From an uncultured archaeon (GTDB lineage Archaea > Nanobdellota > Nanobdellia > Pacearchaeales > GW2011-AR1), in NCBI GenBank assembly GCA_902385635.1, contig CABMGN010000002.1:18092-82091 (forward strand): a stretch of 64,000 nucleotides of DNA. Reading direction: 5' to 3'. The first letter of the stretch is position 1. Each line of letters opens with the position of its first letter. The notes beneath the pieces were generated by a model. It was given only the letters and a program-made list of their open reading frames with translations, was not told the DNA's origin and did not search any database. The translations under genes were made by a program, and so were the position numbers. Positions 120 through 55,820 of this stretch are shown piece by piece.

Positions 120-165
120 TAAAGTCCTCTTTAGTTTAGGTTAATAAAGATTTTGGTTATATAAA

Positions 166-328: not shown

Positions 329-349
329 GATCTATTCTTTTGAGATACT

Positions 350-922: not shown

Positions 923-929
923 TTTTAAA

Positions 930-1178: not shown

Positions 1179-1217
1179 GATAATAATCCTTAAAAACAGG
1201 TGTTTAATTCTAAAGTT

Positions 1218-1523: not shown

Positions 1524-1568
1524 TCTTAGTATAATAATATTTAAGAATGGAGTTTTTATCTTATTTTT

Positions 1569-2135: not shown

Positions 2136-2141
2136 ATAGAA

Positions 2142-3056: not shown

Positions 3057-3096
3057 CAGTAGAAAAAGAGTTGGTAGTTTTTAAGGATTGTGAAAT

Positions 3097-3666: not shown

Positions 3667-3696
3667 GTTTTCTTTGACTTTTGTGAATATTTAAAT

Positions 3697-4413
3697 TTAT
3701 GCAAACACAACTTTTCTTGCTTCGTCCTGACTTAAAATGAAAAGTTTCCCAAAATCATCTTTAGCTAGTTGTTCATACATTTTAGCGATTCTGGGATGAA
3801 ACATTTTTCCCATTGAGTAGTAAGCATCGTCTAGAACTGTTGAGCTCTTTGCATCCCAAATTTCTACAACTTTTCGCTGGATCCCCCTTTCTTCTTTCCA
3901 TTCTCTCGGAAAATTTAGGTGTAATACTCCTCCTAACTTAGAGTTCATTCCTTGATTAAAATATTCTTCTAGAGCTTCTTTTAATGTTGCTTCATACTGA
4001 TTAATTGTCTGTACTATTGGGTCTGACTTCCATTGTTCTTTTAATCTTTCTACCGCTTCTACTGGAATCCCTTTTGGGGTCCTATAAAGGGGGGCATCTA
4101 CTTCGTTTGGTGCGACAATTCTCTGATCTGGAACAATTATTGGCGAATCTTCTGTTATTGCTCCTTTTGTATGCTCTAGTATGGATAAGTGTGCCCTCAA
4201 CATCGCTCCCGGGATAGAAGCCATAAGTGCGTATTTACTCTTAGGTCTTTCTTCTGGTTCCATTTCATATCCGTCATTTAAGAGGACCTCCTGAAGTATA
4301 GGGTCAGTTAGAAGTCTGTCTCCGAACTCTCCAACTAAATTATGCAAGGCTCCAACCCTTTCTATTGTTGTATCTCTCAACCAAAGAGGGTATTCTTCTA
4401 GTCTTCTTATCAT
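3697..4413 (-). CDS. hypothetical protein, orphan
   Basis: 238-aa ORF, 30 nt upstream of 3097..3666 on the same strand. No family recognised. Confidence 0.55.
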   Translation of the reverse strand: MIRRLEEYPLWLRDTTIERVGALHNLVGEFGDRLLTDPILQEVLLNDGYEMEPEERPKSKYALMASIPGAMLRAHLSILEHTKGAITEDSPIIVPDQRIVAPNEVDAPLYRTPKGIPVEAVERLKEQWKSDPIVQTINQYEATLKEALEEYFNQGMNSKLGGVLHLNFPREWKEERGIQRKVVEIWDAKSSTVLDDAYYSMGKMFHPRIAKMYEQLAKDDFGKLFILSQDEARKVVFA

Positions 4414-4461
4414 TTAAATTCATCTTTCTCGAAGCTTTTAACTTTTTCTATAGTGCAAAAT

Positions 4462-4470
4462 CTTTATTAA
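4462..4470 (+). promoter_or_regulatory. TATA-box-like element upstream of argS
   Basis: CTTTATTAA lies about 22-30 nt upstream of ATG 4492. Confidence 0.4.
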
Positions 4471-14485: not shown

Positions 14486-16714
14486 TTATATTCTCTTTCT
14501 TTTCATCAAAAGAGTATTTAATACGACACTTACCGAGGACATAGCCATTGCTCCTCCGGCAATGATCGGTGACAGAAGCCATCCTGTAGAAGAGTAAAGA
14601 ACTCCCGCGGCTATTGGAACTCCAAGTGAGTTATAGAAAAGTGCCCAAAACATATTTTGTTTTATTTTGTTTATTGTTATTTTACTTAGTTTTATAGCTT
14701 TGACAACATCGAGAGTTGAATTATTCATTAGGACAATATTTCCTGTTTCCATTGCAACATCTGTTCCCGAACCAATTGCAATACCTATATCTGCTTGGGC
14801 AAGAGCGGGAGCATCATTAATTCCATCTCCAACCATGGCGACTTTTCCTTTCTTTTGCAATTTTTTAACTTCTTTTGCTTTGTCCTGCGGAAGAACTTCG
14901 GAGATTATGTGATTAACTCCTAATTGCTTTGCAATTGCATTAGCTGTTCTTTTATTATCTCCAGTAATCATGTAAACGAAAATTCCTTGTTCTTGTAGAG
15001 CCTTTACAGCTTTAACAGAATCTGCTCTTGGAGTGTCTGCAATTCCAACAAATCCAACAATTTTTTTATCTAAAATTCCGACAATAACTGTTTTTCCATC
15101 TGCTTCGAGACTGGATATCTGGGGGTCATACTCGTGTATTTTTCCAAATTTCTTAAGATACTCAGGCTTTCCTACGATTAATCTCTTTCTTTTGAAGTCT
15201 CCTTCTACTCCGTGTCCAGGGATTGCTTTGAATTTTGTTATTTTCTCTAGAGAAATATGGCTTTCCTTTGCTTTGTTAACTATTGCCTGGGCTAGAGGGT
15301 GTTCTGAATGTTGTTCTATACTAGCAAATATTTTTAGTAATTCTTTCTCACTAAACTTATTTAGAGAAACTATGTCTGTGACTTTTGGTTTACCCTCTGT
15401 AAGTGTCCCTGTTTTATCAAATACAACAGCGTAAAGTTTATGTGCTGTTTCTAGCGCATCTCCTCCTTTGATGAGTATTCCTTTTTCTGCTCCTTTACCT
15501 GTACCAACCATGATTGCTGTAGGTGTTGCGAGACCAAGAGCACACGGACAAGCAATAACTAGTACTGAAACTGCAATAATGAGAGAGAATTCAAATGTTT
15601 GACCTACGGCCCAGTACCATATAGAGAAGGATAAAATAGCTATTAGAATAATCGCTGGAACAAAATAAGCTGAGATTTTATCAGCAAATCTTTGTATTGG
15701 TGCTTTTTTCCCTTGCGCATCTTCAATTAGCTTAACTATTTGGGCGAGAGTAGTATTTGCTCCAACTTTTGTTGCTTTGAATTTTATAGTCCCGTTTTTG
15801 TTTATTGTTGCACCTATAACAAGATCTCCTTTTCCTTTTTCAACAGGCATACTTTCTCCGGTAATCATACTTTCATCTATAGCTGATTCTCCTTCTGTGA
15901 TTATCCCGTCTACCGGAACCTTCTCTCCGGGCTTTACAATAATAATATCTCCAACAATAACCTCATCTACTTTTATTTTCATCTCTTTCCCTTTTCGTAT
16001 AACTGTTGCAATTTTAGGAGAGAGACTCATTAATTTCTGAATTGCTTCACTTGTTTTTCCTTTTGCGGAAGCTTCAAGGTACCTACCTAGCATTACAAAA
16101 GTAATCAATACCGCAGCTGCTTCAAAGTATTGATCTCCCATTGGATTAAAGAAGACAACATACAAACTGTAAAAGTAAGCTGCACTTGTTCCTAGGGCAA
16201 TAAGAGTATCCATGTTCGCTGTTTTATTTTTTAGAGCGCCCCAAGCACTCTTGTAAATTCCGGTGCCGATAATAAATTGGACAGGTGTTGCCAGTGCTAG
16301 AAGAATATAATTTCTGTACGGGATTTCAATCCCAAGCCACATAAAGACCATTCCTATCAAAAATGCTGGAATTGCAAATATTAAGCTATAAAAGAATAAG
16401 TTTTTTTGTTTTTTCAAATATCTTTCTCTCTTCTTTTTTTCAAAATCTGCTTGATCATACTCATCATTATGCCCCTCATGAACCATTTTCATCTTTCTAT
16501 GCTCGGGGTTCTCTGCAGTATAACCTAAACTTTTTATTATACTAATTATCTTTGGTTCATCTATAACTCTTTCATCAAATTCTACTGTTGCTTTTTCTGT
16601 ATTAAGATTAACACTTGCATATTTTATGCCTGGTTGTTTAGTCAAGGATTTATCTAGTAAAGTTACACAGCTTTGACAGTGCATTCCAGTAATTTCGAGA
16701 TTGATTTTTTTCAT
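14486..16714 (-). CDS. copA: copper-translocating P1B-type ATPase
   Basis: N-terminal HMA motif GMHCQSC, CPC motif in [11 protein letters not shown], phosphorylation site DKTGTLT, and GDGINDAP. Confidence 0.95.
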
Positions 16715-16908
16715 TTCACCTTATAACCTGAATTTTCAATTACCCCTTTGATTTGTTTTTCTGAGATTATTTTTTCATCAAACTCTATTTTAGCTATCCC
16801 TTTCTTATAATCAATTAATATTTTATTTACTTTTCCTTCTAGTTCCATTTTAATTATTTTTGCGCAACTTTCACAGTGCATGCCTTCTATTTGGAATATT
16901 TTTTCCAT
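16711..16908 (-). CDS. copZ: copper chaperone, HMA domain
   Basis: [18 protein letters not shown]. The start was moved to ATG 16908, just after the stop of the upstream gene. Its TGA stop overlaps the copA ATG. Confidence 0.85.
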
Positions 16909-16910
16909 TT

Positions 16911-18371
16911 TTACATTCCACACCCGCATCCGCCACCATTTGCACCCATACTACAACTTGAACCTGCTTTTGGTGTTGATGCTTTCACTTGACTCTGAGT
17001 TGCAGTTCCATCCGTAGTAACAATGAAACTTCCCCTTAACATTCCCATTCCACAGCTAAACGGAAGAGTGCCTTCTTTATCTGGAGTAAATTCTATTACA
17101 TTTAATCCTTCTTTTAGAGATTTGTCAATTCCGTACTGCTGTAATATTAGTTCCTGGTTACAACTAGTTAGCTGTTTTACATTTACATTCCAGACTACCG
17201 GTATTCCTTCTTTGAGCACAAATGAATTAGGAGAGTAGCCCGAGGCAGATACATCCATGTTTATTACCTGCTTTCCATCTACTAATACTATACTATCACT
17301 TCCGTTTACTATCTTTACACCAGAATTTGTTATTTGTGATTTTATTGAATCAAAATTGTAATTACTTCCTAAAAGAGTCAAGCCCCTATTTAGCATAACT
17401 AAACCAAGGATTAGAACAATTATTGCGGAAATTTTTAATATTTTCTTTGTTGTTGAGTGACTTATTACTGTAGCTAGACTTCCAAATCCAAGCATTACTG
17501 GAAGAGTTCCTAATCCAAATACAAAAAGGCTTATTGCACCTGTTGCAATATTTCCTGTTCCTGCTGCATAAAGATACATTGCTTGTAAAGGTCCGCAAGC
17601 GATGAATAACCCATTTAACAAACCTGTAACTAGAGGTCTTGAGTACGGTCCTTTGTATTTACTTGAAGTGTTTGTAGAAGCTCGCATTAAGAATTTTGGA
17701 TTAAACTGGAATTTTCTAAAGAACTTTATTCCAAACATACTAAAAGCATAAGTTATCATGAAGACTCCTGCTAAAATTGCAATCCAGCCTCTTAGCCCTG
17801 CTGAAAACGCAAAGAAGCCTCCGATTAAACCGAAAACCCCACCGATAATTGTGTAAGAAATAACCTTACTTCCCCCATAAATTGCGTGTTGTGTGAAACT
17901 CTTATGTCCGTCTAGGGCGTTTTTAGCAGTGTACGAAACTACAAATCCTCCACACATGGAAACGCAGTGAAAGCCTGTTAACAATCCTGCTGCGAACAAA
18001 AGAATTAATGAAGCATTATCTCCAAACTGGGGAATAGAAATTTCTGGAAGAGTAAAACCACTTTTGCTTAGAGTAATATATAGAATAACTAGGAGTAATA
18101 AAACAGCTGCACTTAGAATAAACCAACCAGTCTTAGATTTTTTTGATTCTTCTTTTTTGAGGTTACTTTTCTCATTTAGAGAATACCCCTCTTTTTCTAG
18201 CTCTTTTTTTATTTCTTCTTCTGTTATTTTTGTTTCATCAAAATCTATTTCTGCTGTTTCTTTTGAGTAATTTACAGAAATACTATTAACTTTGTCTTTT
18301 AGTTTTGTTTCTATAAGATGCGCACAAGAGTTACAATGCATTCCTTTTACTAAGTAATTTTTCTTTACCAT
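16911..18371 (-). CDS. HMA domain / DsbD_2-type membrane domain / cupredoxin-like domain fusion with Cys-Gly tail
   Basis: N-terminal GMHCNSC. The TM core has GFHCVSMCGG. The C-terminal domain has SCNQELI...FSCGMGMLRGSFIV (cupredoxin_1-like). The tail is GSSCSMGANGGGCGCGM. Confidence 0.7.
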   Translation of the reverse strand: MVKKNYLVKGMHCNSCAHLIETKLKDKVNSISVNYSKETAEIDFDETKITEEEIKKELEKEGYSLNEKSNLKKEESKKSKTGWFILSAAVLLLLVILYITLSKSGFTLPEISIPQFGDNASLILLFAAGLLTGFHCVSMCGGFVVSYTAKNALDGHKSFTQHAIYGGSKVISYTIIGGVFGLIGGFFAFSAGLRGWIAILAGVFMITYAFSMFGIKFFRKFQFNPKFLMRASTNTSSKYKGPYSRPLVTGLLNGLFIACGPLQAMYLYAAGTGNIATGAISLFVFGLGTLPVMLGFGSLATVISHSTTKKILKISAIIVLILGLVMLNRGLTLLGSNYNFDSIKSQITNSGVKIVNGSDSIVLVDGKQVINMDVSASGYSPNSFVLKEGIPVVWNVNVKQLTSCNQELILQQYGIDKSLKEGLNVIEFTPDKEGTLPFSCGMGMLRGSFIVTTDGTATQSQVKASTPKAGSSCSMGANGGGCGCGM

Positions 18372-41252: not shown

Positions 41253-42089
41253 ATGGTTTCTAAACTAGAACGATTAAGCGAAGACGAATATCCTTCACGA
41301 CCCCATTTAGAAAGTCTTGATTTGGGAGAGGATAATCTTGCATTAGGTATAGAGGCTGCAGCTAGGAATAATCCTGCTTTAATGGAATTAATGGCTTCTG
41401 AAAGATTAGACCCAAAAACAAAAAAGGCTTTGTATGAAACTTTGAGAAGATATAGCCAGAGTGTTTCAGAACATCCGCAGGTTAGGAGAACTCTTCTTGC
41501 ACAAGATATGCACCAGGGAGCAAGATATCTTCCTGAAGGGGTTGATGCTAGGGCTGCTTTGAGTCGTGGAATTTATGATAAACCCGGAAGGCACATGCAA
41601 TATCCGTATGTAAACTCGGTATTTGGCGAAGAAGAGACAGACAAAAAAAGTGCAAAGAAAAAAACAGAAGGATTCTTAAAATATATGCTTAAAGAAGGTT
41701 GGCCTGTGGGTGTAGGTGGTGCTGGCTGGTTAATGGCAGATAACTGGTATAAAGAAAAAATGAAACAAGGTCTTCTAAAAAGAATTGGTGGAAGAGTTGT
41801 TAAGAATTGGTGGGGAAATTTAGGAAATCCTATGTATGGTGCCGCAAAAACTGTTGGTGGCTCTCTGGCTGAGGAAGGAGCACTAGGTATTTGGGGGGCT
41901 ATTAGCACACCTTTAATGTACTCTTTAGGAGCATACGCTCTTTACAAAACAGCTAAGTATTTCTTAAAGAGGAGAAAGGAGAAGAAGATAGAAGCAGCAA
42001 GGCAAGAAAGGTGGGAAAATCTTAGAAGAGATGCTATGATGCAAAATCAAATGTTTATGCAAAATTTACCTCTGGAGGAAGCTGCATAA
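41253..42089 (+). CDS. hypothetical protein, Gly/Trp-rich amphipathic/TM C-terminal half
   Basis: 278-aa ORF starting 2 nt after the CBS gene. It contains GWPVGVGGAGWLMADNWY...GALGIWGAISTPLMYSLGAYALY. No family recognised. Confidence 0.5.
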   Translation: MVSKLERLSEDEYPSRPHLESLDLGEDNLALGIEAAARNNPALMELMASERLDPKTKKALYETLRRYSQSVSEHPQVRRTLLAQDMHQGARYLPEGVDARAALSRGIYDKPGRHMQYPYVNSVFGEEETDKKSAKKKTEGFLKYMLKEGWPVGVGGAGWLMADNWYKEKMKQGLLKRIGGRVVKNWWGNLGNPMYGAAKTVGGSLAEEGALGIWGAISTPLMYSLGAYALYKTAKYFLKRRKEKKIEAARQERWENLRRDAMMQNQMFMQNLPLEEAA

Positions 42090-42670
42090 TGGGAAAGTAT
42101 ATTGCATTTGAAAAGGGAAAGAGGTTAGAGAAAACAAAAACACTTGGGAAAGCTGCAGGAAAAATCTTACCTCTTTTTGCTAAGGATAGTGTTTCTGATT
42201 TTACTGATGAAATTTTAAGAGAAGATGAGTATTTGAGAAATCTTGTATTACAAAATCCAGACTATCGTGGTTTATTAGAACAACATGTTTCGGACCAATT
42301 CAAAAAATATAAGGGAGTTCTTACTGGAGCAAAATTAGTTGATAGTTGGGATAGAGTTACAAGCGCAATTGGAATGGCTGCTGAAGTTTTTCCGGGTCTA
42401 GGAACTTTAGTTGATGAAGGAGAGGAACTTGTAGAATTAATCCCAAAAGGAATTTATGCTGTACATTATGTTCATAAAACAAAAGATTGGAAAGCACCGA
42501 TTTACTGGACTGCTGCAGAAGCTGCATCATTTATTCCAATTGTAGGAGATGCCATTGATATGACTAATATTTATGTAAACAGGGCTAGAAAAGTTACAAA
42601 GGATGCTGTAAAAAAAGAATTCAGAAAAACTGTTACTCAACCTTCTAGATTAGAAAGATTAGCTGCTTAA
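42089..42670 (+). CDS. hypothetical protein (contains IPIVGD motif)
   Basis: Its start overlaps the previous stop (TAATG). 193 aa. No family recognised. Its 3' end overlaps the convergent gltX stop by 4 nt. Confidence 0.5.
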   Translation: MGKYIAFEKGKRLEKTKTLGKAAGKILPLFAKDSVSDFTDEILREDEYLRNLVLQNPDYRGLLEQHVSDQFKKYKGVLTGAKLVDSWDRVTSAIGMAAEVFPGLGTLVDEGEELVELIPKGIYAVHYVHKTKDWKAPIYWTAAEAASFIPIVGDAIDMTNIYVNRARKVTKDAVKKEFRKTVTQPSRLERLAA

Positions 42671-43921: not shown

Positions 43922-44230
43922 TCAGTAGTAGTTTAGAGAACGATTGCTTGCTTTTCTGAAATGCCTATTCTTCTCTCTGTATGCAGCAACAACTGTAAAG
44001 TAAACCAGGAAAACGAAGATAAATAGGGTCTGGGCAAGCATCATCCAGATATCTTCTAGTGCGTAGAAGTAAATTAAGAAGAAAACTCCGGCAATTAGCC
44101 TTACGCCACAACCTATTAAAGAAACATCTTCTGAAGATTCCCTAGAAGAAACTCTAAAAATTTGTAGTAATGAATCTATAGAAAGTGCAAAGAAAGCTGC
44201 AATAAAAAACCCGTATATCACCGAATCCAT
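43922..44230 (-). CDS. small membrane protein (3 TM)
   Basis: Hydrophobic 102-aa ORF. No family recognised. Confidence 0.45.
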   Translation of the reverse strand: MDSVIYGFFIAAFFALSIDSLLQIFRVSSRESSEDVSLIGCGVRLIAGVFFLIYFYALEDIWMMLAQTLFIFVFLVYFTVVAAYREKNRHFRKASNRSLNYY

Positions 44231-44281: not shown

Positions 44282-44632
44282 TTATTTATCTTGAAGCTTT
44301 CTCTCTAAATATTCTATTCTTTGCTCAAGTTTGTAAATTTGGTTTGAAAGATCTTCTAGTTGAGTGGTCATTGTAGAAAGTCTTTGGGCTAATTTGCTTC
44401 TTCTTTCTTCAGGAGAGTCTTCTTCGGTTGAGGGGCTTGAGTAGCTAGAGCTACTTGAAGATCCTCCTCCAAAAAAACCACCTAGAAATCCTCCAGCTGT
44501 TGAATCTTGTGTTGTTGAAGAGCTAGAACTAGATGTAGAACTTGAAGAAGTTGCTTTAGGTTTAGAAGGTTTCCTTTTAACACCTCGTAAATCCATTATC
44601 TCGTCTTTGTATGATGAACCAAACCACCCCAT
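44282..44632 (-). CDS. Ser-rich low-complexity protein with C-terminal coiled coil
   Basis: Ser/Thr/Gly runs (TSSSSTSSSSSSTT, GGFLGGFFGGGSSSSSS) are followed by the heptad-like LSTMTTQLEDLSNQIYKLEQRIEYLERKLQ. Confidence 0.45.
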   Translation of the reverse strand: MGWFGSSYKDEIMDLRGVKRKPSKPKATSSSSTSSSSSSTTQDSTAGGFLGGFFGGGSSSSSSYSSPSTEEDSPEERRSKLAQRLSTMTTQLEDLSNQIYKLEQRIEYLERKLQDK

Positions 44633-44677
44633 AATTATTACAGTTTTTTGATATTTTTAAATTGTTCGACAGAGATT

Positions 44678-44688
44678 AAATTTATATA
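44678..44688 (+). promoter_or_regulatory. TATA-box-like element upstream of RuBisCO
   Basis: AAATTTATATA lies 22-32 nt upstream of ATG 44710. Confidence 0.45.
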
Positions 44689-44709
44689 TTGTTTTTTCCT
44701 AGAGCATAT

Positions 44710-46188
44710 ATGAAAAAGAGTGTGAAGAAAACTGTTCCTAAATCTAATTATCATGCTCTTTTGAAAACACTAAATCCACATCAGCAAGCGTATATTAGTC
44801 TTGATTTGGAAGGTGCAAAAAATGGAGAATATATGTTATGTGTTTTTCATATGGTTCCGAGAAAGGGGCTTAATTCTCTACAAGCTGCGTGTGAAGTTGC
44901 TGCAGAGTCTTCTACAGGAACAAATTTCTTAGTTAAGACAGAAACACCCTTCTCTAAAAAGATGAATGCTCTTGTTTACAAACTTGATCTTCAAAAAAGT
45001 CTTGTTTGGATTGCTTACCCTTGGAGATTATTTGACCGCGGAGGGAATATTCAGAATATTTTAACTTACATTGTCGGAAATGTTTTAGGAATGAAAGAGG
45101 TTTCTGAGTTAAAACTTCTTGATGTCTGGTTTCCTCCAACAATGATTGAACAGTATGATGGTCCAAATTACACTTTAGATGATATGAGAAAGTACTTGGG
45201 GGTTTACAAAAGACCAATTCTTGGGACAATAATCAAACCAAAAATGGGCTTGACTTCTTCGGAATATGCTGAAGTTTGTTATGACTTCTGGGTTGGGGGC
45301 GGAGACTTTGTAAAGAACGACGAACCTCAAGCTAATCAAGATTTTTGTCCGTATGATAAAATGGTTAAGTATGTTAAAGAAGCAATGGACCGAGCGGTTA
45401 AAGAAACTGGAAAGAAGAAGGTTCACTCCTTTAATGTTTCTGCCTCAGATTATGAGACAATGATTCAGAGATGTGAGATGATTAAGAACGCAGGTTTTGA
45501 AAAGGGTAGTTATGCTTTTCTTATTGACGGCATTACTGCGGGGTGGATGGCTGTTCAAACTTTGAGAAGGAAGTATCCCGATGTTTTCATACACTTTCAC
45601 AGAGCAAGTCACGGGGCATATACAAGAAAAGAAAACCCTATTGGCTTTTCTGTTTTAGTTCTGTCTAAGTTCGCACGATTAGCTGGGGCTTCTGGAATTC
45701 ACACAGGAACTGCCGGAGTTGGAAAAATGGCTGGAAGTCCGGAAGAAGATATTATTGCAGCTAAAAACATTTTACAATTTGTTGCAAAGGGTCACTTTTT
45801 TGACCAGTCTTGGGGGAGGATACCTGGGAGAGATAAGGATGCAATAAAGATAGTTCACGAAGATCACGCTCATCACGTAATCTTAGAACATGATAGTTGG
45901 AGGGGAGTAAAGAAGTGCTGTCCGATAATTTCTGGGGGGTTAAACCCAACTTTGTTGAAACCATTTATTGATGTCATGGGAGGTGTTGATTTTATTACAA
46001 CCATGGGCGCAGGTTGTCATGCTCACCCGAAAGGAACACAGGCTGGAGCAAGGGCTTTAGTTCAGGCATGTGAAGCTTACCAGAAGAAAATTGACATTCA
46101 CAAGTATGCAAAGACCCATAAAGAGTTAGCCGAAGCTATTGAATTCTTTGAGAAAAAAGGAACAGAGAGAAAAGTTGAGAGTGCTTGA
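44710..46188 (+). CDS. rbcL: ribulose-1,5-bisphosphate carboxylase large subunit, archaeal form III / II-III-like
   Basis: GTIIKPKMGL, GGGDFVKNDEPQ (carbamylated Lys), HFHRASHGAY, GIHTGTAGVGKMAG (loop 6 Lys), PIISGGLNP and GAGCHAHP. ATG 44710 is preferred over the track TTG at 44689. Confidence 0.9.
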   Translation: MKKSVKKTVPKSNYHALLKTLNPHQQAYISLDLEGAKNGEYMLCVFHMVPRKGLNSLQAACEVAAESSTGTNFLVKTETPFSKKMNALVYKLDLQKSLVWIAYPWRLFDRGGNIQNILTYIVGNVLGMKEVSELKLLDVWFPPTMIEQYDGPNYTLDDMRKYLGVYKRPILGTIIKPKMGLTSSEYAEVCYDFWVGGGDFVKNDEPQANQDFCPYDKMVKYVKEAMDRAVKETGKKKVHSFNVSASDYETMIQRCEMIKNAGFEKGSYAFLIDGITAGWMAVQTLRRKYPDVFIHFHRASHGAYTRKENPIGFSVLVLSKFARLAGASGIHTGTAGVGKMAGSPEEDIIAAKNILQFVAKGHFFDQSWGRIPGRDKDAIKIVHEDHAHHVILEHDSWRGVKKCCPIISGGLNPTLLKPFIDVMGGVDFITTMGAGCHAHPKGTQAGARALVQACEAYQKKIDIHKYAKTHKELAEAIEFFEKKGTERKVESA

Positions 46189-46242
46189 AGCCGTATCAAA
46201 CATTTTTTAAACATCATTCTCCTCTATATTTTAATAAAAAAG

Positions 46243-47790
46243 ATGGCAGCAACTGTAGATCAACTTATTGGTAAAATTAATCCAAAACTCTATGCAGAAA
46301 ATGGAGCAGAGCTCTTGAAGAAGTATGGCAGCTGGGATAAGATTCCGGCTGAAGAAGTAGTACCTAAACCTGCTTCGGAACATAAGCTAACTTACGACTC
46401 TTCTGCAGATCAGTTAGAGCCAATTTACTTCTATATTTTAGATATGATGAATGATCGTGCAATGAAACCTGAGAAGCTAGTTGATAATTTTTCTTCATCA
46501 CCCGGATCAGGACATTTTGGAGAGATGGGGCAGAGAATGTCTGTAATGCAACAACAAGGTGTTAAAATTTTAGGGGATATAAATAATGTCTTAAGAAGTG
46601 TTTTAAATATAATTTATGACTTAAAGGATTTCAGAACAAGACTACAAGTTTACAAGGATTCAAAAGATAAAGATCCTGCTAGAGCCGAAGCAGCAAGACT
46701 ATCTCTAAAACAAATTTGGTTAGATAAAGTAGATATTAATAAGGGGGTTCAGGGAAATTCTAGTATTAAAGCCATGGCTCTTTCACAAGCAGGGTTTGTT
46801 ACTCTTCTCGACGCATTTTTGGCTGTAAAGGATGAAAAAGAAGTCGCTAAAATGGATCTAAACGAGAGAGTAAAAAGAATTGTTGAACAGAGAATCCAAG
46901 AATTTAATGTCTGGGTTATACAGTCTGAAATGGAATTAAATAAAAGATATGAGATAGAAAAAACTTATTTGAAAAGTCAGGTAAATAGTCTAAAGATTTA
47001 TGCGCAATGGGCAAAGCCTTACCTAGTTGCAGCACAGCAGTTACAGATGACTGATATGTCAAAGAATCCTTCTTTAGTAAAAGCATTCAATACTATCCTT
47101 CTTCAATTAACATTAATTGGAAGTAATAAAGTAGATGTTGCAGACGAAGTTATTGCAAATAATTTCCCTACTGAATTAAAAGGTATGAAGATAAAAAGAG
47201 ATTATTTTGCTTGTACGCTTATTGACTTCTCATTCCGAGGGATTCCCCAGAGAGCCTCTGCAACACAATCACATTATGTTTTCGGGGGACTTTCAGAAGT
47301 TACATTTAGAGCTTATGCTTTGAATGCTGACGAGAAAAAAGCATTAAGCAAAGAAGTTGAAACTTCGTTGGTTAGTGATGTTCTGAAACTAATTGAAGGA
47401 GCAACAACAGAAAGTTTAGCAAATTTAAAAGATGAGATCGAATATTATCTAGAAGAAAAGCCCAAAGAAGAAAAAAAGGAAGAGAAAAGTAGTTCTTCTG
47501 GAGGCAAAGGATTTGGAGGAGTAATTGCTGACTTATTTTATCCCTTTGCAGCGATGTCTGGAAGGTACGATAAAGAAGGAAGTGCGGATACTTTCTCAGA
47601 TAAAAAAAGTGGAGATAAGAAAAAAGAAGATAAGTCAATTAGATCTGATGATTATATTGAAAAAACCTTTTTGAGAAAATTTGCTGAAGACAAAGCAAAA
47701 ACAACAACCTTTGATCTATTTGAAATCTACAAAAAGACTCACGGAATGGCAAGTTTCCCTCTTAATATGAATAAGAACGATCTTAGCTAA
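46243..47790 (+). CDS. hypothetical 515-aa protein, helical, with Lys/Glu/Ser/Gly low-complexity region near the C-terminus
   Basis: Long ORF 54 nt after rbcL. It has predicted long helices (VLRSVLNIIYDLKDFRTRLQVY; SEMELNKRYEIEKTYLKSQVNSLKIYAQW). No family recognised. Confidence 0.6.
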   Translation: MAATVDQLIGKINPKLYAENGAELLKKYGSWDKIPAEEVVPKPASEHKLTYDSSADQLEPIYFYILDMMNDRAMKPEKLVDNFSSSPGSGHFGEMGQRMSVMQQQGVKILGDINNVLRSVLNIIYDLKDFRTRLQVYKDSKDKDPARAEAARLSLKQIWLDKVDINKGVQGNSSIKAMALSQAGFVTLLDAFLAVKDEKEVAKMDLNERVKRIVEQRIQEFNVWVIQSEMELNKRYEIEKTYLKSQVNSLKIYAQWAKPYLVAAQQLQMTDMSKNPSLVKAFNTILLQLTLIGSNKVDVADEVIANNFPTELKGMKIKRDYFACTLIDFSFRGIPQRASATQSHYVFGGLSEVTFRAYALNADEKKALSKEVETSLVSDVLKLIEGATTESLANLKDEIEYYLEEKPKEEKKEEKSSSSGGKGFGGVIADLFYPFAAMSGRYDKEGSADTFSDKKSGDKKKEDKSIRSDDYIEKTFLRKFAEDKAKTTTFDLFEIYKKTHGMASFPLNMNKNDLS

Positions 47791-47829
47791 AAACAGAAAT
47801 TTAATAAATTTCAGAATTCTAAATAACAC

Positions 47830-48279
47830 ATGGCTAAAGAAGAAAAATCTAAGAGTGAGAAGGTTCCTGAGAAAAAGGAGCAGAAAGAAGAAGCTAAAGA
47901 AAGAATTAAGATAGTTTCACTTAAATCTGTTGAACCTAAAGAAGAACTTGTTACTTTTCAAAGTAAATGGGCTATGCTCGTTGACAGAAAGGACGAACCA
48001 GTTAGAAAACCAAAATTAGAATTAACTCTAGATAGTGAAAAGATTGAAAATTTAGAGCAAGATATTAAGAAAGTTTCTGCACAAAAGAAGAAGGGTCCTA
48101 GGGGAGATTATGATATAACTCCAAAATATGAGCAGAATAAATATAACGAAGTTGTTGGAGAGTATGAAAATCCTGAAAAAGAAGGAGTAAAAGTTAGAAC
48201 AGATTCTAAAACTGATGATAGATTAGATTTAATGAGAAATGATAATCTTCGACTTCAGAAGTACGAGGCTAAACACTAG
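47830..48279 (+). CDS. hypothetical Lys/Glu-rich 149-aa protein
   Basis: ORF 39 nt after the previous gene. Highly charged. The stop is TAG. No family recognised. Confidence 0.5.
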   Translation: MAKEEKSKSEKVPEKKEQKEEAKERIKIVSLKSVEPKEELVTFQSKWAMLVDRKDEPVRKPKLELTLDSEKIENLEQDIKKVSAQKKKGPRGDYDITPKYEQNKYNEVVGEYENPEKEGVKVRTDSKTDDRLDLMRNDNLRLQKYEAKH

Positions 48280-48321
48280 TTTTATATAGGATTATTGTAT
48301 TATTATGTAAAGGTGATTATC

Positions 48322-50148
48322 ATGGCCATTGATGAGTCAAAATATTTAATCAAACCATTCTATCAGGGGGGATATTCTAGTCTTCAGCCAAGTAAGGCAG
48401 GGGATAATTTTACAGGCTATCATGTTAAGACTGGTGGAATTGGCCTTACTGCAAATCCTACTGTTGCAAATCAGATTGGAGAGTTGAGTAAAAACCTAAA
48501 CACGGGTGCTGTTGCTGTGGAGGTTGGAACACTCAGTCCACAAAACTGGGAGACTATTCCTAAACAACATTTTGCAGAAATGAGGAGGTTAGGAAAATTA
48601 ACTGGTGCAAAAGTTACACTCCACGCTCCGATTCAAGGTGTTGAACCTTCAGGATTGGACCCTCAAGGACAAAGACCGTGGGACGAAACACAAAGATTAG
48701 CTGTTGAAAGACAACTGAATGATGTTGTTGTTAAAGCAATAGATATGCAAGGAGAGAAAGGTAGAATTCCAATAACAATTCACGCATCTAACTTGCCTGG
48801 AAACGAATATGTTAGAGATGGTAAGGGAGGATTAAAAGCACATAGACTCGCACTTGTTAATAGAGAGGATGGAAGAACAGCAGTTATCGAAGAAAAAAAG
48901 AAAGTTGAGCCCTGGATGGAAAAAGAATCCTTTGAGGGAGGAGAGAAAGCAGGCAAGCTAATGGATCCTGCAGAGGAGCTTAGAAGAATTAATAGAGATA
49001 GTTGGCAGAGTACACTTTCAAATATTGCTTATAATAAAAGTTTTGTCGATAGAAGCCTTAAAGATAGTTATGTACAACTTCAAGATTTTGAAAAAGAAAT
49101 GAAAGAGAAGAAGATTAGCCCTGAAGAATTAAAAGAGCTAGGATTTTCTCCCCAGGGAGAAGCCTATAGAACAATAAAAAATTCTGAAGCAATTCTTACA
49201 AATACAACTAGAGAAATTTATAATCTTTTCAATATGGCTTACAAAAATGGGACAGATGAAGAGAGAGCGAAACTTTTTGAAGCTTCTGAAAAGTTTAAAC
49301 AAGGATACAAAGACGGGGAATCTATAATAAAAAAGTCCGAAGCACTACAGGTGATTATTAATACTTTACAGGATGTTTCCCCGAGAATTTATGTTCCTGT
49401 TGAAGAATTTGTTATGGATAAATCTGCAGAGACTTTTGGGAATGTTGGTTTTAAGGGCTTTATGGAAGCAAAAAAACAACATAAAGAAGCTCCGATGATT
49501 AGTGTTGAAAATTTATTTCCAGGTATGGCTTTTTCAACAGGCCAGGCTGTAGCTGATTTAGTTAAAAAATCAAGAGAAGAATTTGTGAAAAAAGCTGTAG
49601 ACGCTGGAGAGATGAATAAACAAGAAGCAGAAAGGATGGCTGAAAAAGTTATTGGTATGACTCTCGATGTTGGACATTTAAATATTCATAAAAAAGAAGG
49701 AATCAAGGATGAGGATCTAATGAGAGAGGTTGAGAAAGTTAAGAAATTGGTTAAACATGTACATATTACAGACAATTTTGGTTATGGTGATTCTCACTTG
49801 CCCCCTGGAATGGGAAATGTTCCGATTGGGAAAGTTTTGGAACAGTTAGAAAAAGAAGGTTATAGCGGAACAAAGATTTTAGAAGTTGGTGGATGGATTA
49901 ATGCATTCAATACAAATCCGTACGCACTTTCATTAGAGGGATTGGGGACGCCAATAGGAAGTACTGGTGGAGCTTACTGGAATCAGTCTGCGGGATTGAC
50001 TCAGGGTTATTTTGGAGGATATGGAACATTTTTACCTCAAATAAATTATGAAACATTTGGGGGGGGATTCTCGACCCTTCCAGCTGAACTTGGGGGCCAG
50101 AGATTGGCTGGGCCAGGAAGTAGAATGTCTGGCCGGGGTTTAGAATAA
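48322..50148 (+). CDS. xylose-isomerase-like / endonuclease-IV-like TIM-barrel protein split by a ~230-aa helical insertion, Gly-rich tail
   Basis: Ordered metal-ligand-like motifs are TLHAPI, ITIHASN, ISVENLFPG, TLDVGHLN, HVHITDN, GDSHLPPGMGNVPIG and KILEVGG. GGTGA lies 6 nt upstream of ATG 48322. Confidence 0.6.
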   Translation: MAIDESKYLIKPFYQGGYSSLQPSKAGDNFTGYHVKTGGIGLTANPTVANQIGELSKNLNTGAVAVEVGTLSPQNWETIPKQHFAEMRRLGKLTGAKVTLHAPIQGVEPSGLDPQGQRPWDETQRLAVERQLNDVVVKAIDMQGEKGRIPITIHASNLPGNEYVRDGKGGLKAHRLALVNREDGRTAVIEEKKKVEPWMEKESFEGGEKAGKLMDPAEELRRINRDSWQSTLSNIAYNKSFVDRSLKDSYVQLQDFEKEMKEKKISPEELKELGFSPQGEAYRTIKNSEAILTNTTREIYNLFNMAYKNGTDEERAKLFEASEKFKQGYKDGESIIKKSEALQVIINTLQDVSPRIYVPVEEFVMDKSAETFGNVGFKGFMEAKKQHKEAPMISVENLFPGMAFSTGQAVADLVKKSREEFVKKAVDAGEMNKQEAERMAEKVIGMTLDVGHLNIHKKEGIKDEDLMREVEKVKKLVKHVHITDNFGYGDSHLPPGMGNVPIGKVLEQLEKEGYSGTKILEVGGWINAFNTNPYALSLEGLGTPIGSTGGAYWNQSAGLTQGYFGGYGTFLPQINYETFGGGFSTLPAELGGQRLAGPGSRMSGRGLE

Positions 50149-50189: not shown

Positions 50190-51026
50190 ATGGTGAAAAA
50201 AAATTCTATTAAAACAATAAAAAGAGAAGTAAAAATTCCATCTATGCAATTGAAGACAGAAAAAGAAATTGCGATGGACTTCGCGGTTAAAGTTTATAAA
50301 AAATTTGACAGAGCAATAAAGTCTATTGTTCTTTTCGGAAGTGCAGCCAAACAGGAAGGAGAATCCGGATCAGATATAGATATTGTGATTATACTAGATG
50401 ACGTCTCGATTGGGTGGGACATGGAAACTGTTGCTTGGTATAGAGAAGAATTAGCTAAAATTTTGCAACTTAATCCGTATGTTAAACCAATTCATGTTAA
50501 TACTATTAAATTAAGTACTTGGTGGGAAGATCTTTTGAGAACAGATCCGGTAGTGGTAAATGTTCTTCGTTACGGAATTTCCTTAGTTGACTTTGGTGGA
50601 TTTTTTGAACCAATGAAAGTTTTACTTGCAAATGGGAAACTCAGACCTTCTCCCGAAGCAATTTATAATTGTTTACAAAGAGCTCCGACAAGTCTTGCAA
50701 GAAGTAAATCTTCGGTAAGAGGAGCTATCGAGGGGTGTTTTTGGTGCATGGTTGACTCTGCACATAGCGCTTTGATTGCTGTAGGAAGCCTTCCTCCTTC
50801 TCCAGAACACATACCTTTAGAACTCAAGACAAAGTTTGTTGATACAAAAATGCTTGATAAAAAGTATGTTATATGGTATAGAGACCTGCTGGTTTTACAT
50901 AAAAGAATATCTCATAATGAGATCTTTGGACTCAAGGGCGCTGAAGTAGATGTTTGGCAACAAAGAAGTGAAGAATTTTTGGGTGTTATGGCTACTTTAG
51001 TTAATAGCCTTGTAAGTAATAAATAA
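50190..51026 (+). CDS. nucleotidyltransferase (Pol-beta superfamily) fused to helical HEPN-like C-domain
   Basis: VLFGSAAKQEGESGSDIDIVIILDD is the GS...DxD motif. The C-terminal helical domain has YRDLLVLH (Rx5H). Confidence 0.7.
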   Translation: MVKKNSIKTIKREVKIPSMQLKTEKEIAMDFAVKVYKKFDRAIKSIVLFGSAAKQEGESGSDIDIVIILDDVSIGWDMETVAWYREELAKILQLNPYVKPIHVNTIKLSTWWEDLLRTDPVVVNVLRYGISLVDFGGFFEPMKVLLANGKLRPSPEAIYNCLQRAPTSLARSKSSVRGAIEGCFWCMVDSAHSALIAVGSLPPSPEHIPLELKTKFVDTKMLDKKYVIWYRDLLVLHKRISHNEIFGLKGAEVDVWQQRSEEFLGVMATLVNSLVSNK

Positions 51027-51225: not shown

Positions 51226-51831
51226 TTAAGCTGCTTTACCAGCTAGTTCTTGTTCAACAGCTTTTATAGCTCCTTCTAAGCCTTTTGAGGTTTTTGAAGC
51301 TACTTCTCCTAGAGCTTTTGAAGCTGCTCCGAATAATGAATTCTGTTGATAAGAGCCTATAATTAATGCTGCAACTTTTTTTGCAAATGGATTTTTTGAG
51401 CTAACAGCGTCTTCTACGTACATTCCAGCAATTGCTTTTGGAACTTGACCTTTGTACCCCACAAGTCCGGCTAAATCTTGGAGTGTTACATAATTTATTG
51501 ATTCTTGTTCTGCTACTGCACAAGACTGAATTGCCTGAAGCTCAGAAACATTACCAGTATATCTCTGACCCCCAACTCTTGCAGACTCTGCTACTGATGC
51601 AAAAGGGTTTACTTTCTCACCAGTCTTTGGGTCAGTATAAGATGCACCTTCAGCTAGAGCGGGTTTGTATACACTCTGCTCAAGAGCAGCATTAACTGCT
51701 TCTCCAAAGTCCTGTTTAGCAGCATGAATATTATAAACTACTCCAAGCCTTGCTACAGTTCCCTTAAGGTTCTTAAGAGCAATGTCTCTTCTCTTCTCCT
51801 TTTGTGCTTTTGTAAGCTCTTGTTTTGCCAT
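51226..51831 (-). CDS. Ala-rich hypothetical protein (201 aa), probably abundant
   Basis: Its own TATA-like TTTATAAA (51852-51859) lies about 21-28 nt upstream of the ATG. It sits just downstream of the ribosomal protein genes. Composition is Ala/Gly/Val/Gln-rich. No family recognised. Confidence 0.55.
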   Translation of the reverse strand: MAKQELTKAQKEKRRDIALKNLKGTVARLGVVYNIHAAKQDFGEAVNAALEQSVYKPALAEGASYTDPKTGEKVNPFASVAESARVGGQRYTGNVSELQAIQSCAVAEQESINYVTLQDLAGLVGYKGQVPKAIAGMYVEDAVSSKNPFAKKVAALIIGSYQQNSLFGAASKALGEVASKTSKGLEGAIKAVEQELAGKAA

Positions 51832-53990: not shown

Positions 53991-55820
53991 TTATAGGATT
54001 ATCTCGTAGTCTCCGAGTTCTTTTTTTATTAACTCAAATATATGAGAGGAAATTTCCAGAGTTTTCTTAACTTTCTGTTTTTCTACTTCTTCTGTTACTT
54101 CTTCCATTGTAGCATTTTCTACTTTATGCCCCGCATGATCTATTTTTCTAATGTTCTTTTCAACAAATAAGAAAGTCTTTCCATTAGCAGAAAGTATCTC
54201 AGCAGTATGTTCTTTTCCATCTTTCTTGTACTTAAGCCTCATCCTACCCTTCTCTAAATTAACCATGTCACATCTCTGCGTGTATTCTATTAGGTCATTA
54301 ATCAGAATTGAAGCACTCTTTCTTGCATCATCTACTTTTTGGGCGTCTAACTTTCCTTTTTTGAATTCTGCTTTAGCAGCAAGGACTTCTTTTAGAATTC
54401 TTAGATGCTGCTGAGAGAATTTACCTGTTTTTATAAAGTTCTCTTCAAACTCCTCTAACTGTGCTGCAGGAACCTTCTTTCCAGTTACAGCCTCTAAAAG
54501 ATTAACCATGTCCTCATGTATCTGATTTATTGTCTTTTCCTGAGCGTGCTTTTCAATTTGTTCTTTAAGTTCTTTTAGTCTGTTTAAGTATTCTTCTGAA
54601 CCCTCAATTAGTTTATCCAACTCTGCTCCCTTGATCTCTTTAATTTTTTCGTGTTCAAAATCTTTGTATATCTGAATAACCTTTGTAAAAAAATCAGAAT
54701 ATTTTTTCTCTAACATTTTTTCTTTTTCAACAAAAACCTTCCGTAATACTTCTGGAGCTTCTTTTGTAGTGGGCGGAGGAAGTCCATACAACATGATTAT
54801 TGCTTGCGTTGGAGTTAAGACCCCCCAGTAAAGATCTCTAATAACAATGTCAAGTAACCCCATCTTAGCCCTCTGTGCAGTCTTATCCCCCATAGACATA
54901 AACATATCAATTGCTTCTGGGCTTGGTTTTAATTTACCCATCTTAAGAAGCGCTTTCCATGGCATGAATGTACTTCTATCATGTAAAGGAATCCCATCCC
55001 GAATAAATGTGAAAATAACTGGATGTGCATCTTTTACTGCCTCCCAGAATTCTGTAAGAAGATAAACCTGAACATTAAGAAGATTTTTCACACCGGCTAA
55101 AGCTGTTGCTTCCTGTATGTACTGATAGATAATTCCTCTAAGCCTTTCTTTTAATTCTAGTCTCGGCATCCTTTTTACGTCGGTATCGTTAATAACAATA
55201 AATATATCTACATCTGAGGTTGGAACAGTATCTCCTCTTACTAAACTTCCGGCAACAACGTAACTAACTACATACTTCTCAAACTTCTGAAGAACAAGTG
55301 ATTTGTGAATTTCAGCTACCCTTAGAGCTCCTAAAATTCCCTTATCAAAAATAGGATAAGACATTGCAATTGCCTCGGTTAAGGCAAATTTACTATCAAG
55401 ACAGTTTTCCCAGACATCAACAGGTGTTTTTACTTGAATCCAGATTTTATCTTTTGTCTTTTCTAATTCTTTAACTATTTCTTGACGAATTTTGGGTATA
55501 TTCTTAAATTGTTCTTCGGGAACAATCATGTAAAGATGCATAAATTTCTCTGTTTCTTTTGGAATCTCTTCCTCATCTATAAACAGCTTAATTGTTTGTG
55601 GGGGTAGAATTCCAATTGCCTGAGTGAATTCGTATTTCTTAAGAATAAATGTTTTCAATTTTTCAACTTCTTTTTTTGTTTTAAGAAGTTCTTTTTGTGC
55701 TTCAGAAACATTCTCGGAGATTTGAGACTTTTTAGGGCTGTATTTATCTTCTGTAAAAGTGTTTTGAGAATCAAGTTCGTTTTCTAGCTCTTCTTCTCTT
55801 CGTTCATCACCGTCTCCCAT
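53991..55820 (-). CDS. large nucleotidyltransferase-domain protein (609 aa), paralog of 50190..51026 core
   Basis: VVAGSLVRGDTVPTSDVDIFIVINDTD. It shares GKLKPSPEAI with GKLRPSPEAI of 50190..51026. Long charged helical N- and C-extensions are present. Confidence 0.65.
   Translation of the reverse strand: MGDGDERREEELENELDSQNTFTEDKYSPKKSQISENVSEAQKELLKTKKEVEKLKTFILKKYEFTQAIGILPPQTIKLFIDEEEIPKETEKFMHLYMIVPEEQFKNIPKIRQEIVKELEKTKDKIWIQVKTPVDVWENCLDSKFALTEAIAMSYPIFDKGILGALRVAEIHKSLVLQKFEKYVVSYVVAGSLVRGDTVPTSDVDIFIVINDTDVKRMPRLELKERLRGIIYQYIQEATALAGVKNLLNVQVYLLTEFWEAVKDAHPVIFTFIRDGIPLHDRSTFMPWKALLKMGKLKPSPEAIDMFMSMGDKTAQRAKMGLLDIVIRDLYWGVLTPTQAIIMLYGLPPPTTKEAPEVLRKVFVEKEKMLEKKYSDFFTKVIQIYKDFEHEKIKEIKGAELDKLIEGSEEYLNRLKELKEQIEKHAQEKTINQIHEDMVNLLEAVTGKKVPAAQLEEFEENFIKTGKFSQQHLRILKEVLAAKAEFKKGKLDAQKVDDARKSASILINDLIEYTQRCDMVNLEKGRMRLKYKKDGKEHTAEILSANGKTFLFVEKNIRKIDHAGHKVENATMEEVTEEVEKQKVKKTLEISSHIFELIKKELGDYEIIL

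Follow-up and report, generated by a model that had tools for sequence, protein, structure and literature searches.

Endonuclease IV (Endo IV; Nfo in E. coli) and MJ1311, the M. jannaschii protein listed as a predicted Endo IV homologue (PMC2770678, Table 1), belong to the same superfamily of xylose-isomerase-like TIM barrels as the ketose 3-epimerases and sugar-phosphate isomerases (D-psicose 3-epimerase, YcjR, FrlC, Hyi). These barrels are the closest described relatives of one of three genes, here called A, B and C, that lie 3' of rbcL, the gene for a RuBisCO large subunit, in a 64-kb contig stretch from an uncultured archaeon (the window). Other described systems touch the locus at single points: minimal Pol-beta nucleotidyltransferases of the MntA/KNTase-like kind (PF01909) share a domain with the gene that follows C, NAC/HYPK-type UBA proteins share one with two distant relatives of A, and DeoA, E2b2 and the RuBisCO assembly and activase factors resemble the locus by adjacency to rbcL alone, in the window genome and its closest relative. 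RuBisCO is sparse and laterally transferred in the DPANN archaea (PMC6389311). The initial annotation had proposed either that A, B and C are an accessory or assembly module co-transcribed with rbcL or that they are a lineage-specific system merely adjoining it, and our results support the second of these descriptions, as A, B and C are kept without rbcL across Pacearchaeota and part of Woesearchaeota. We are confident that they form a conserved lineage-specific block and not a RuBisCO module, and the explanation that best accounts for the evidence overall, a conserved block with a metallo-phosphoesterase complex scaffolded by A, has in our estimate a probability of roughly 0.6.

An open reading frame (ORF) scan bore out the arrangement first described, three co-directional genes separated by 54 nt (rbcL to A), 39 nt (A to B) and 42 nt (B to C), and placed a fourth co-directional gene, encoding a nucleotidyltransferase, 41 nt after C (Table 1). 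The listed ORF of C opens at an upstream TTG (48295), and the N-termini of its homologues favour ATG 48322, from which the length of C is counted here. A, B and C are genuine genes. They sit in an ordinary AT-rich archaeal chromosomal segment (33–38% GC), and the housekeeping genes of the window include those for IleRS, ArgRS, HisRS, GluRS, Dus, a MiaB-like enzyme, ScpA, the thermosome, L10e and L35Ae.

Table 1. Genes and putative promoter elements in and around the block (window positions).
Feature	Position	Strand	Description
Gene A	46243..47790	+	515 aa; orphan family
Gene B	47830..48279	+	149 aa; Lys/Glu-rich
Gene C	48322..50148	+	608 aa; xylose-isomerase-like / Endo IV-like TIM barrel
rbcL	Listed ORF 44689..46188; probable start ATG 44710	+	Large subunit, form II/III-like by model scores; Pfam and NCBIfam
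Coil gene	44282..44632	-	116 aa; divergent from A; no significant Pfam match
Nucleotidyltransferase	50190..51026	+	278 aa; Pol-beta superfamily; PF01909 1.8e-8, PF18765 4.9e-8
Ala-rich orphan	51226..51831	-	201 aa; between nucleotidyltransferase and L10e
A promoter-like element ACATTTTTTAAAC	46200..46212	+	BRE/TATA-like 13-mer with T6 run
Coil TATA-like element, reverse complement ...CAATTTAAAAATAT	44651..44673	-	Conserved upstream of the coil gene

Gene order around A and the position of rbcL

We fetched 80 species-representative loci encoding A, drawn from 369 positive genomes, and mapped the window proteins onto them; all were metagenome-assembled genomes (MAGs) of Pacearchaeota, Woesearchaeota or Nanoarchaeota except for two evidently mislabelled bins. 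The gene order runs from GluRS and a coiled-coil gene (the coil gene) on the minus strand, through A, a B-like ORF, C and the nucleotidyltransferase on the plus strand, to L10e, L35Ae and a methyltransferase, preceded by an orphan gene, on the minus strand again, and look-ups made independently with single homologues gave the same order. Counted over the 53 loci with enough flank, C lay downstream of A on the same strand in 50 (median gap 877 nt, range 142–4,465) and the coil gene lay divergently upstream of A in 52. The block sits among translation genes (GluRS, L10e, L35Ae, tRNA enzymes), is conserved across Pacearchaeota and is present in part of Woesearchaeota, where the locus L089 keeps it in full and L092 lacks all other neighbours, the nucleotidyltransferase and ribosomal-protein genes included, but still has A, an acidic ORF of 190 aa and C. 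The most persistent pair is that of the coil gene and A, which L089, L090 and L091 all retain, and the trio of A, an intervening ORF and C survives the divergence between orders, though not everywhere. The block of coil gene, A, B, C and nucleotidyltransferase is an ancient chromosomal one, specific to Nanoarchaeia in that it is found in Pacearchaeota and part of Woesearchaeota, and a functional association of A, B and C is likely.

Two contigs labelled as belonging to Omnitrophota and Patescibacteria bacteria (L039, DATJPO010000019.1; L071, JAHYJW010000002.1) carry GluRS, the coil gene, A, C, L10e and L35Ae; these contigs are probably mis-binned or their genomes mislabelled.

rbcL has no place in this shared order. 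It was found within 8 kb of A in none of the 80 GTDB species-representative loci (0/80), and the order rbcL-A-B-C, which the initial annotation suggested checking in other genomes, is shared only by the closest relative (L004), whose A is 82% and whose rbcL is 80% identical to the window genes. Although first taken for form III, the RuBisCO is assigned to the form II/III-like type by its NCBIfam model scores, with 636 bits on NF010002 (cut-off 489; E 2e-191) against 352 bits on the type III model TIGR03326 (cut-off 497), and it matches the Pfam RuBisCO_large family at 1e-93. Its start is probably ATG 44710 and not the listed TTG 44689, because of the L004 homologue and of a conserved TATA-like AAATTTATATA, kept in L004, which stands about 25–30 nt upstream of that ATG.

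The region between the coil gene and A, 44633–46242 in the window, holds rbcL only in the window lineage. Its length is at most 250 nt in 44 of 74 distinct loci and exceeds 600 nt in 13, and these 13 long gaps hold unrelated inserts of 1.3–3.4 kb. A 575-aa ABC transporter recurs among them (at least seven loci); the other cargo comprises a kinase-like protein, a HIT protein, a radical SAM enzyme, a toxin-antitoxin pair and secreted proteins (insertions in L009, L020, L023, L024, L027, L030, L031, L040, L043, L058, L060 and L081). This divergent promoter region is a recurrent insertion site, and rbcL is one cargo among several, inserted between the coil gene and A only in the ancestor of the window organism and L004. 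A search for repeats around rbcL returned neither a target-site duplication nor flanking repeats. The presence of rbcL at this site fits the picture of RuBisCO as sparse and laterally transferred in DPANN (PMC6389311).

The recurrence of inserted genes bears on whether the block is itself a mobile, viral or defence-related island beside rbcL. Toxin-antitoxin pairs and variable genes recur inside the block elsewhere, the nucleotidyltransferase gives weak matches to MntA and to PADLOC candidate systems, and A gives weak matches in BFVD to single-stranded RNA (ssRNA)-phage maturation proteins (E 2e-3, template modelling (TM) score 0.12–0.15). Set against these, the chromosomal position is fixed between GluRS and L10e/L35Ae in tens of species, the base composition of the block is that of its flanks, flanking repeats are missing, and the sequences are strongly conserved, unlike those of fast-evolving defence genes. 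Neither A, B and C nor the coil protein matched PADLOC, and no relative of A was found in 2.9 million viral contigs (IMG/VR), a scan for which the broad alignment A3 was too divergent to serve as a seed. An island origin is thus exceedingly improbable.

Toxin-antitoxin pairs (ParE/MazE, HicA/UPF0150, DUF4258/DUF2283) have been inserted repeatedly in and around the block without disturbing the gene order, at L005 3513–4024, L003 16091–16523, L005 5983–6434 and in the coil-A gap of L060. In the window, a 102-aa hydrophobic protein is encoded between GluRS and the coil gene (43922–44230, minus strand) and is shared only by L004 (87% identical); it is another lineage-specific insertion, since GluRS and the coil gene are adjacent in most other loci.

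Archaeal genes with leaderless or short-leader mRNAs carry a transcription factor B recognition element (BRE) and TATA box close upstream, and oligo-T runs are archaeal termination signals. The 54-nt spacer between rbcL and A (AGCCGTATCAAACATTTTTTAAACATCATTCTCCTCTATATTTTAATAAAAAAG) contains an element whose position and form match this pattern, the 13-mer ACATTTTTTAAAC, which is separated by 11 nt from the stop codon of rbcL and by 30 nt from the start codon of A and has a single exact occurrence in the window. In 65 of 76 distinct loci its TTTTT[TA]AA core recurs in the 80 nt preceding A, most commonly in the form RAAACATTTTTTAAA, with the T-run most often beginning at -29 or -26 from the ATG. 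Because the conserved element sits 5' of A across loci, the spacer would hold the ancestral promoter of A, with rbcL inserted upstream of it; A thus appears to keep its own promoter, and the T6 run may plausibly serve as a terminator signal for rbcL as well. Strongly conserved TATA-like elements also stand upstream of GluRS and of the coil gene; the latter is conserved from -41 to -19 across 60 loci (consensus A..A.AA.TAA.TTTAAAAATAA) and is kept in L004. Comparison of upstream regions across loci gave a weak conserved signal for C and none for the nucleotidyltransferase. A scan for bacterial sigma-70 promoters with hairpin terminators found 22 against 21.4 expected and is uninformative for an archaeon. 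The description of A, B and C as a three-gene operon therefore holds as to their common direction and tight spacing, and a single transcription unit is weakly supported because A appears to have its own promoter and C a weak signal of its own; judged from these upstream signals, the genes and their neighbours may be split into two or more transcription units.

These results weigh on the proposal that A, B and C fold, assemble, regulate or feed RuBisCO as an accessory, assembly or pathway module co-transcribed with rbcL, a variant of which would make C the sugar-phosphate isomerase that supplies ribulose-1,5-bisphosphate. The shared direction and the spacing of 54, 39 and 42 nt speak for it, as do the membership of sugar-phosphate isomerases and epimerases in the superfamily of C and the shared rbcL-A-B-C order of L004. 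Also in its favour, a scan of the 20 larger ORFs of the window turned up neither of the canonical partners of the AMP pathway, AMP phosphorylase and ribose-1,5-bisphosphate isomerase, in agreement with the initial annotation as far as that non-exhaustive scan reaches. The proposal is nevertheless largely refuted by synteny: linkage to rbcL is missing in 80 of 80 other species, while that of A to C is near-universal, most organisms with A, B and C show no rbcL near the block, and the same intergenic site holds unrelated cargo in other lineages. A conserved putative promoter with a T6 run separates rbcL from A, and Pfam and NCBIfam reveal no homology of A, B or C to a RuBisCO partner, chaperone or activase, DeoA and E2b2 included. 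With RuBisCO laterally acquired in DPANN as well (PMC6389311), we consider a role of this kind very improbable.

The barrel protein C and its orphan neighbours

C was described initially as a TIM barrel with a large insertion, and both domain and model searches agree. It matches PF01261 (AP_endonuc_2) with 52 bits (cut-off 31.1; E 1.1e-13), and we detected more than 540 full-length homologues of 580–640 aa, whose annotations read 'sugar phosphate isomerase/epimerase' or 'TIM barrel protein'; PF01261 was present in all 120 among the matches listed. The AlphaFold2 model has a predicted local distance difference test score (pLDDT) of 77.5, above 90 over most of the barrel, and a predicted TM score (pTM) of 0.77, and it shows a barrel of residues ~36–160 and 386–541 split by an insertion of a beta-hairpin and a helical bundle (161–385, ~225 aa). 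Foldseek matched ketose 3-epimerases (E ~1e-4) and E. coli Endo IV (6e-3), with a target TM score of ~0.65 and a probability of 1.0 to members of the superfamily. The closest solved relative is MJ1311 (PDB 3wqo), detected at 1e-7 with the single sequence and at 5e-11 with a profile, over the last three metal-binding motifs.

The residues H101, H154, E396, D449, H452, H479, H481, D490, H492 and E521 of C are invariant or nearly so. They include the E-D-H-E ligand set of the superfamily (E396, D449, H479/H481 and E521, all invariant), and the candidates for ligands of the second and third metal sites, from E396 through E521, are all invariant or at least 90% conserved. Motif by motif, and for H101 and H154 by inspection, H101, H154, E396, D449, H452, H481, D490, H492 and E521 match H69, H109, E145, D179, H182, H216, D229, H231 and E261 of Nfo, whose zinc-ligand positions were checked on the E. 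coli K-12 sequence; the motifs (HAP, xxH, IEN, DxxH, HxH..D, DxH..G.GN and E, with E521 in an ILE/IVE motif) follow in the same order as in Nfo, and the two proteins have the forms IEN, DxxH and H...DxH..G.GN in common. The alignment of H481, D490 and H492 with H216, D229 and H231 was obtained by hmmsearch, and a core profile with the insertion deleted aligned only the H216–H231 segment. We consider C to be, with good confidence, a catalytically competent metalloenzyme as predicted from these residues. Because of the extra invariant His and Asp residues, a multinuclear phosphoesterase site is likelier than a mononuclear epimerase site, and on this sequence basis we lean slightly towards a phosphoesterase rather than an isomerase.

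The same evidence bears on the simpler view that C is an ordinary sugar or sugar-phosphate isomerase or epimerase, as it is annotated, with A, B and the coil protein as unrelated neighbours by inherited order. The top Foldseek matches are ketose 3-epimerases, the four canonical ligands are present, and FrlC and Hyi give partial NCBIfam matches. The scores of these isomerase equivalogs, however, are far under their cut-offs (28.1 bits against 305 for FrlC, 25.6 against 353 for Hyi) and cover only residues ~446–522, and H101, H154, H452, D490 and H492 would be superfluous for a mononuclear epimerase site and match the Endo IV/MJ1311 motifs instead. The ~225-aa insertion and the invariant tails of C are also atypical of metabolic isomerases, and, as a further difference from sugar isomerases and epimerases, C occurs universally in genomes whose sugar metabolism is minimal. 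As to the neighbours, the broadly collinear surroundings, ribosomal-protein genes included, favour inherited order, as does the occurrence of A without an adjacent C in L090 and L091; against it, the trio of A, a disordered ORF and C is kept in L092 where other neighbours were lost. On balance we find the plain isomerase, with its unrelated neighbours, unlikely.

C also differs from the Endo IV and MJ1311 type, with which it shares the barrel, PF01261 and motifs that, with the first two histidines placed by inspection, match all nine zinc ligands in order. It is ~600 aa long against ~285 aa for Nfo, the insertion falls between the strands of H154 and E396, and it carries a conserved N-terminal segment of ~35 aa and a C-terminal tail of ~65 aa. 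The former (residues 1–35; window 48322–48426) reads YQGGYSSL..FTGY and the latter, a Gly/aromatic tail (residues 542–608; window 49945–50148), PYWNQ..GLQQGY.GGYG.MLPQ.NYETFGAGFSQLP.ELGGQR.GG.GSRMSG.PME. A Gly-rich tail had been noted at the outset and is present; its description as low-complexity did not hold, as this tail is among the best-conserved parts of C. Both termini are near-invariant over ~50 homologues and modelled as disordered (residues 1–32 and 542–608, pLDDT below 50), which suggests that they would fold on binding a partner. No match to an NCBIfam nfo model was obtained for C. No canonical Endo IV turned up when Nfo was run by tblastn against the 1.2 Mb of loci fetched, a result of little weight, as these cover only the neighbourhoods of A.

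A has more than 2,143 homologues at 55–63% identity, and the best 120 are full-length and 54–89% identical; those with a name are 'hypothetical protein' of Pacearchaeota or Nanoarchaeota. A profile of A searched against 1.84 billion cluster representatives detected 724 clusters (50% identity) at E<=1e-3 and 268 at E<=1e-30, and the distant members form a second clade, in Woesearchaeota, ~25% identical to the window protein. The claim that A and B match no recognisable family was borne out: nothing significant was found for either in Pfam, NCBIfam, PHROGs, PADLOC or PDB sequences. For A the same was true of 47 homologues and 10 distant homologues in the domain databases, and PDB searches with the single sequence and two profiles gave nothing below E 0.03 (best profile E 0.036–0.058). 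Recurring weak matches to Gon7, Saf4/Yju2 and DUF5752 fell in the Lys/Glu-rich region and were dismissed as compositional. We found no description of these families in the literature; they are already in public MAG annotations, unnamed. A, like B, cannot be assigned to a known kind.

The AlphaFold2 model of A (pLDDT 68.5, pTM 0.56) shows a core of mixed alpha/beta type, a small alpha/beta portion at the N-terminus, very long helices at 92–140, 145–169 and 208–269, of which those at 92–140 and 208–269 belong to long helical hairpins, a three-stranded sheet with flanking helices at 285–361, a disordered Lys/Glu-rich linker at 406–464 and a C-terminal helix. The best-conserved motifs are DNFSSSPGSGHF..LGQR...MQQQG, LKQIW.DKVD, W.KPYL and FRGIPQ, together with NPF.A..G.Y in the linker and YKK.HGM in the C-terminal helix. 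A low-complexity stretch noted earlier in A, KEEKKEEKSSSSGGKGFGG, is indeed present and proved to be a lineage-specific expansion of this variable linker, in which the NPF.A..G.Y motif is conserved. The linkers of two Woesearchaeal members hold a UBA_HYPK domain above threshold (P0422, residues 428–463; P0479, residues 387–424; 3.6e-8 and 8.8e-8), which window A and the Pacearchaeal clade are without; the domain points to the linker as a site of protein interaction and gives no firm indication of function. A has no transmembrane segment and a neutral isoelectric point. Foldseek searches with the model were insignificant, with a best E of 8.7e-3 against PDB (TM score <=0.16) and of 1.9e-3 against BFVD (<=0.15). 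The profile and fold searches that had been suggested for these proteins thus placed C among the PF01261 barrels and left A without a sequence or fold match. The folds of EmrA, BAR-PH, ClyA, Cyt1A and the ssRNA-phage maturation protein were rejected for A as matches of elongated helices (TM score below 0.2) and not homology, and the model gave no fold support for a portal, an HK97 capsid or an encapsulin shell.

B had been described as made largely of Lys and Glu, and with 36 Lys and Arg and 34 Asp and Glu, 47% of its residues are charged; it is probably disordered. Its only clear homologue is a 136-aa protein of L004, and an ORF of 130–240 aa with ~30–40% Lys, Glu and Asp nevertheless lies directly upstream of C in nearly every locus. 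These ORFs share the weak motifs MPKxK.., PvLEriA, epKY and a C-terminal KY. B is short and divergent among the members of this positional family of charged ORFs upstream of C.

The coil protein begins with an MGWFG motif (family consensus MGLFGFGKK, highly conserved), continues with a Ser-rich/GGF linker and ends in a near-invariant helix, LAKRL.DMT.KLEDLSNQIYHLQQRIEVLERK. Its resemblance to PspA, ESCRT-III or SepF is confined to the N-terminal MGLF, and these candidates were discarded, as were PIP-box and HbYX motifs in the tails, the patterns of which do not fit.

This protein is central to another view of the locus, that of a membrane-associated structural or cytoskeletal system in which the coil protein anchors through MGLFGFGKK, A polymerises or scaffolds, and B and the tails of C give a multivalent assembly, with a role that could lie in division, shape, host contact or lipid handling in episymbionts. 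The aromatic amphipathic motif in the linker of A and its long helical hairpins are consistent with such a system, as are the conserved hydrophobic/basic N-terminus and near-invariant helix of the coil protein, the persistence of the coil-A pair even without C, the strong constraint on A within Pacearchaeota, and the disordered linkers and conserved short motifs of all four proteins; the nearest folds to A are also of helical-hairpin or lipid-binding kinds (EmrA, BAR-PH, ClyA, Cyt1A, SRPBCC). These fold similarities are insignificant, however (best E 9e-3, TM score <=0.16), no transmembrane segment or signal peptide was predicted, and no homology to the FtsZ, SepF, ESCRT, PspA or actin families was detected. 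A structural system would moreover leave a catalytically intact TIM-barrel enzyme unexplained, and we rate it as quite unlikely.

A candidate metallo-phosphoesterase complex

The explanation we prefer is the conserved block with a metallo-phosphoesterase complex scaffolded by A. All four proteins (A, B, C and the coil protein) would be cytoplasmic, in keeping with the absence of predicted transmembrane segments. C would belong to the Endo IV/MJ1311 branch of the xylose-isomerase-like barrels as an active enzyme that depends on metal. Rather than a sugar isomerase, it would most likely be a phosphoesterase with a multinuclear metal site, and its substrates would be nucleic-acid ends, apurinic/apyrimidinic (AP) sites or another phosphodiester. 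A would be a strongly constrained, non-enzymatic scaffold with a globular alpha/beta head and long helical hairpins, which would use short linear motifs to bind candidate partners, namely the coil protein, disordered B and both of the invariant terminal tails of C. A later step on the substrate of C may fall to the co-conserved Pol-beta-type nucleotidyltransferase. The simplest guess at a function is the processing of nucleic-acid ends, which would fit the Endo IV-like site, the nucleotidyltransferase and the surrounding translation and tRNA genes.

Several observations weigh against this explanation. Much of the A-B-C linkage could be inherited gene order rather than function, and the inference from synteny is weakened because the whole Pacearchaeal neighbourhood, ribosomal-protein genes included, is collinear; L090 and L091 keep the coil-A pair and have no adjacent C. 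B is barely conserved, and a B-like ORF is missing in three of 67 loci (L001, L075, L081). Within Pacearchaeota A is 50–65% identical, where GluRS has a median of 58% and L10e of 61% in the same loci, a comparison biased because the loci were picked by similarity to A; between orders, A is ~25% identical against 45–48% for L10e and L35Ae. A known fold of A could be missed because its model is moderately confident (pLDDT 68.5). In C, H101 (HAP) and H154 (ITIHS) are invariant, in the right order and on predicted strands, and were paired with their Nfo counterparts by motif order and inspection; the MJ1311 match is weak in this part. The direct comparison of C with E. coli Nfo is not significant (hhalign probability 0.5%, hmmsearch E=0.024). 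The strong link of C to Endo IV is indirect, by way of MJ1311 (5e-11), beyond which sugar epimerases and isomerases give its best structural and NCBIfam matches. No protein of the set is basic or has a recognisable nucleic-acid-binding domain. The promoter of A is called from sequence, and read-through from rbcL could still occur.

We propose only tentatively that A, B, C and the coil protein form one physical complex, for which they are candidates. A fuller reading, which we hold to be doubtful, is that the coil protein, A, B and C are a hitherto unrecognised protein machine specific to Nanoarchaeia, in which the orphan-fold scaffold A would position the Endo IV-like C through its Gly/aromatic tails, together with a membrane-proximal coil partner and a disordered adaptor, in an essential process peculiar to ultra-small episymbionts. 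Such a process might be, for example, end processing coupled to the nucleotidyltransferase or the handling of host-derived molecules that contain phosphodiesters.

Neighbouring genes and significance of the block

The nucleotidyltransferase consists of a Pol-beta-type domain and a C-terminal half to which no domain could be assigned, and it has no relative among PDB sequences. It is 58–66% identical across Pacearchaeal loci, where it always lies downstream of C, and 37% identical in L089; in L092 it is not adjacent to C. With the minimal MntA/KNTase-like nucleotidyltransferases it shares the NTP_transf_2 domain above threshold, but it is housekeeping-like, fixed in position and without an evident HEPN partner, and is not a toxin-antitoxin component. 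A second conserved large nucleotidyltransferase lies near the block: a 609-aa protein (window 53991–55820, minus strand), in which a central NTP_transf_2 is the only recognisable domain, has counterparts of 517–610 aa at the same syntenic position in other Pacearchaeal loci.

The Ala-rich orphan is weakly conserved, with tblastn identities of 25–38% at the same position in 12 loci and no match in Pfam, NCBIfam, PHROGs or PADLOC. Two further orphans of 278 and 193 aa (window 41253–42089 and 42089–42670, plus strand) are common only to L004, in which a protein encoded between C and the nucleotidyltransferase is a likely paralogue of the 193-aa one (L004 11963–12484; similarity judged by eye); a weak Pre-toxin TG match (E 0.05) was obtained for these orphans or their L004 counterpart. 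Elsewhere in the window (14486–18371, minus strand) lies a heavy-metal cluster, in which a P-type ATPase with an HMA domain stands beside a fusion of HMA, DsbD-like transmembrane and cupredoxin domains.

Much of the core proteome of Pacearchaeota and Woesearchaeota, which are abundant, uncultured archaea with reduced genomes, is without annotation. A link to RuBisCO, tempting but false, is set aside by the analysis, and what is left is a clean case of a laterally acquired rbcL at a site of recurrent insertion. The analysis also marks out a widely conserved block for structural and biochemical work, comprising an orphan family of ~724 clusters, a disordered partner, an unusual Endo IV-like barrel and a nucleotidyltransferase. 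Conserved hypothetical proteins are common in DPANN, and it is the combination of a scaffold, a tailed enzyme and persistent linkage that makes this block a concrete target. If its products form no complex, C alone would still be a new architectural variant of a well-studied enzyme superfamily; if they do assemble into one complex, archaea with next to no genes to spare would possess an essential machine particular to their lineage.

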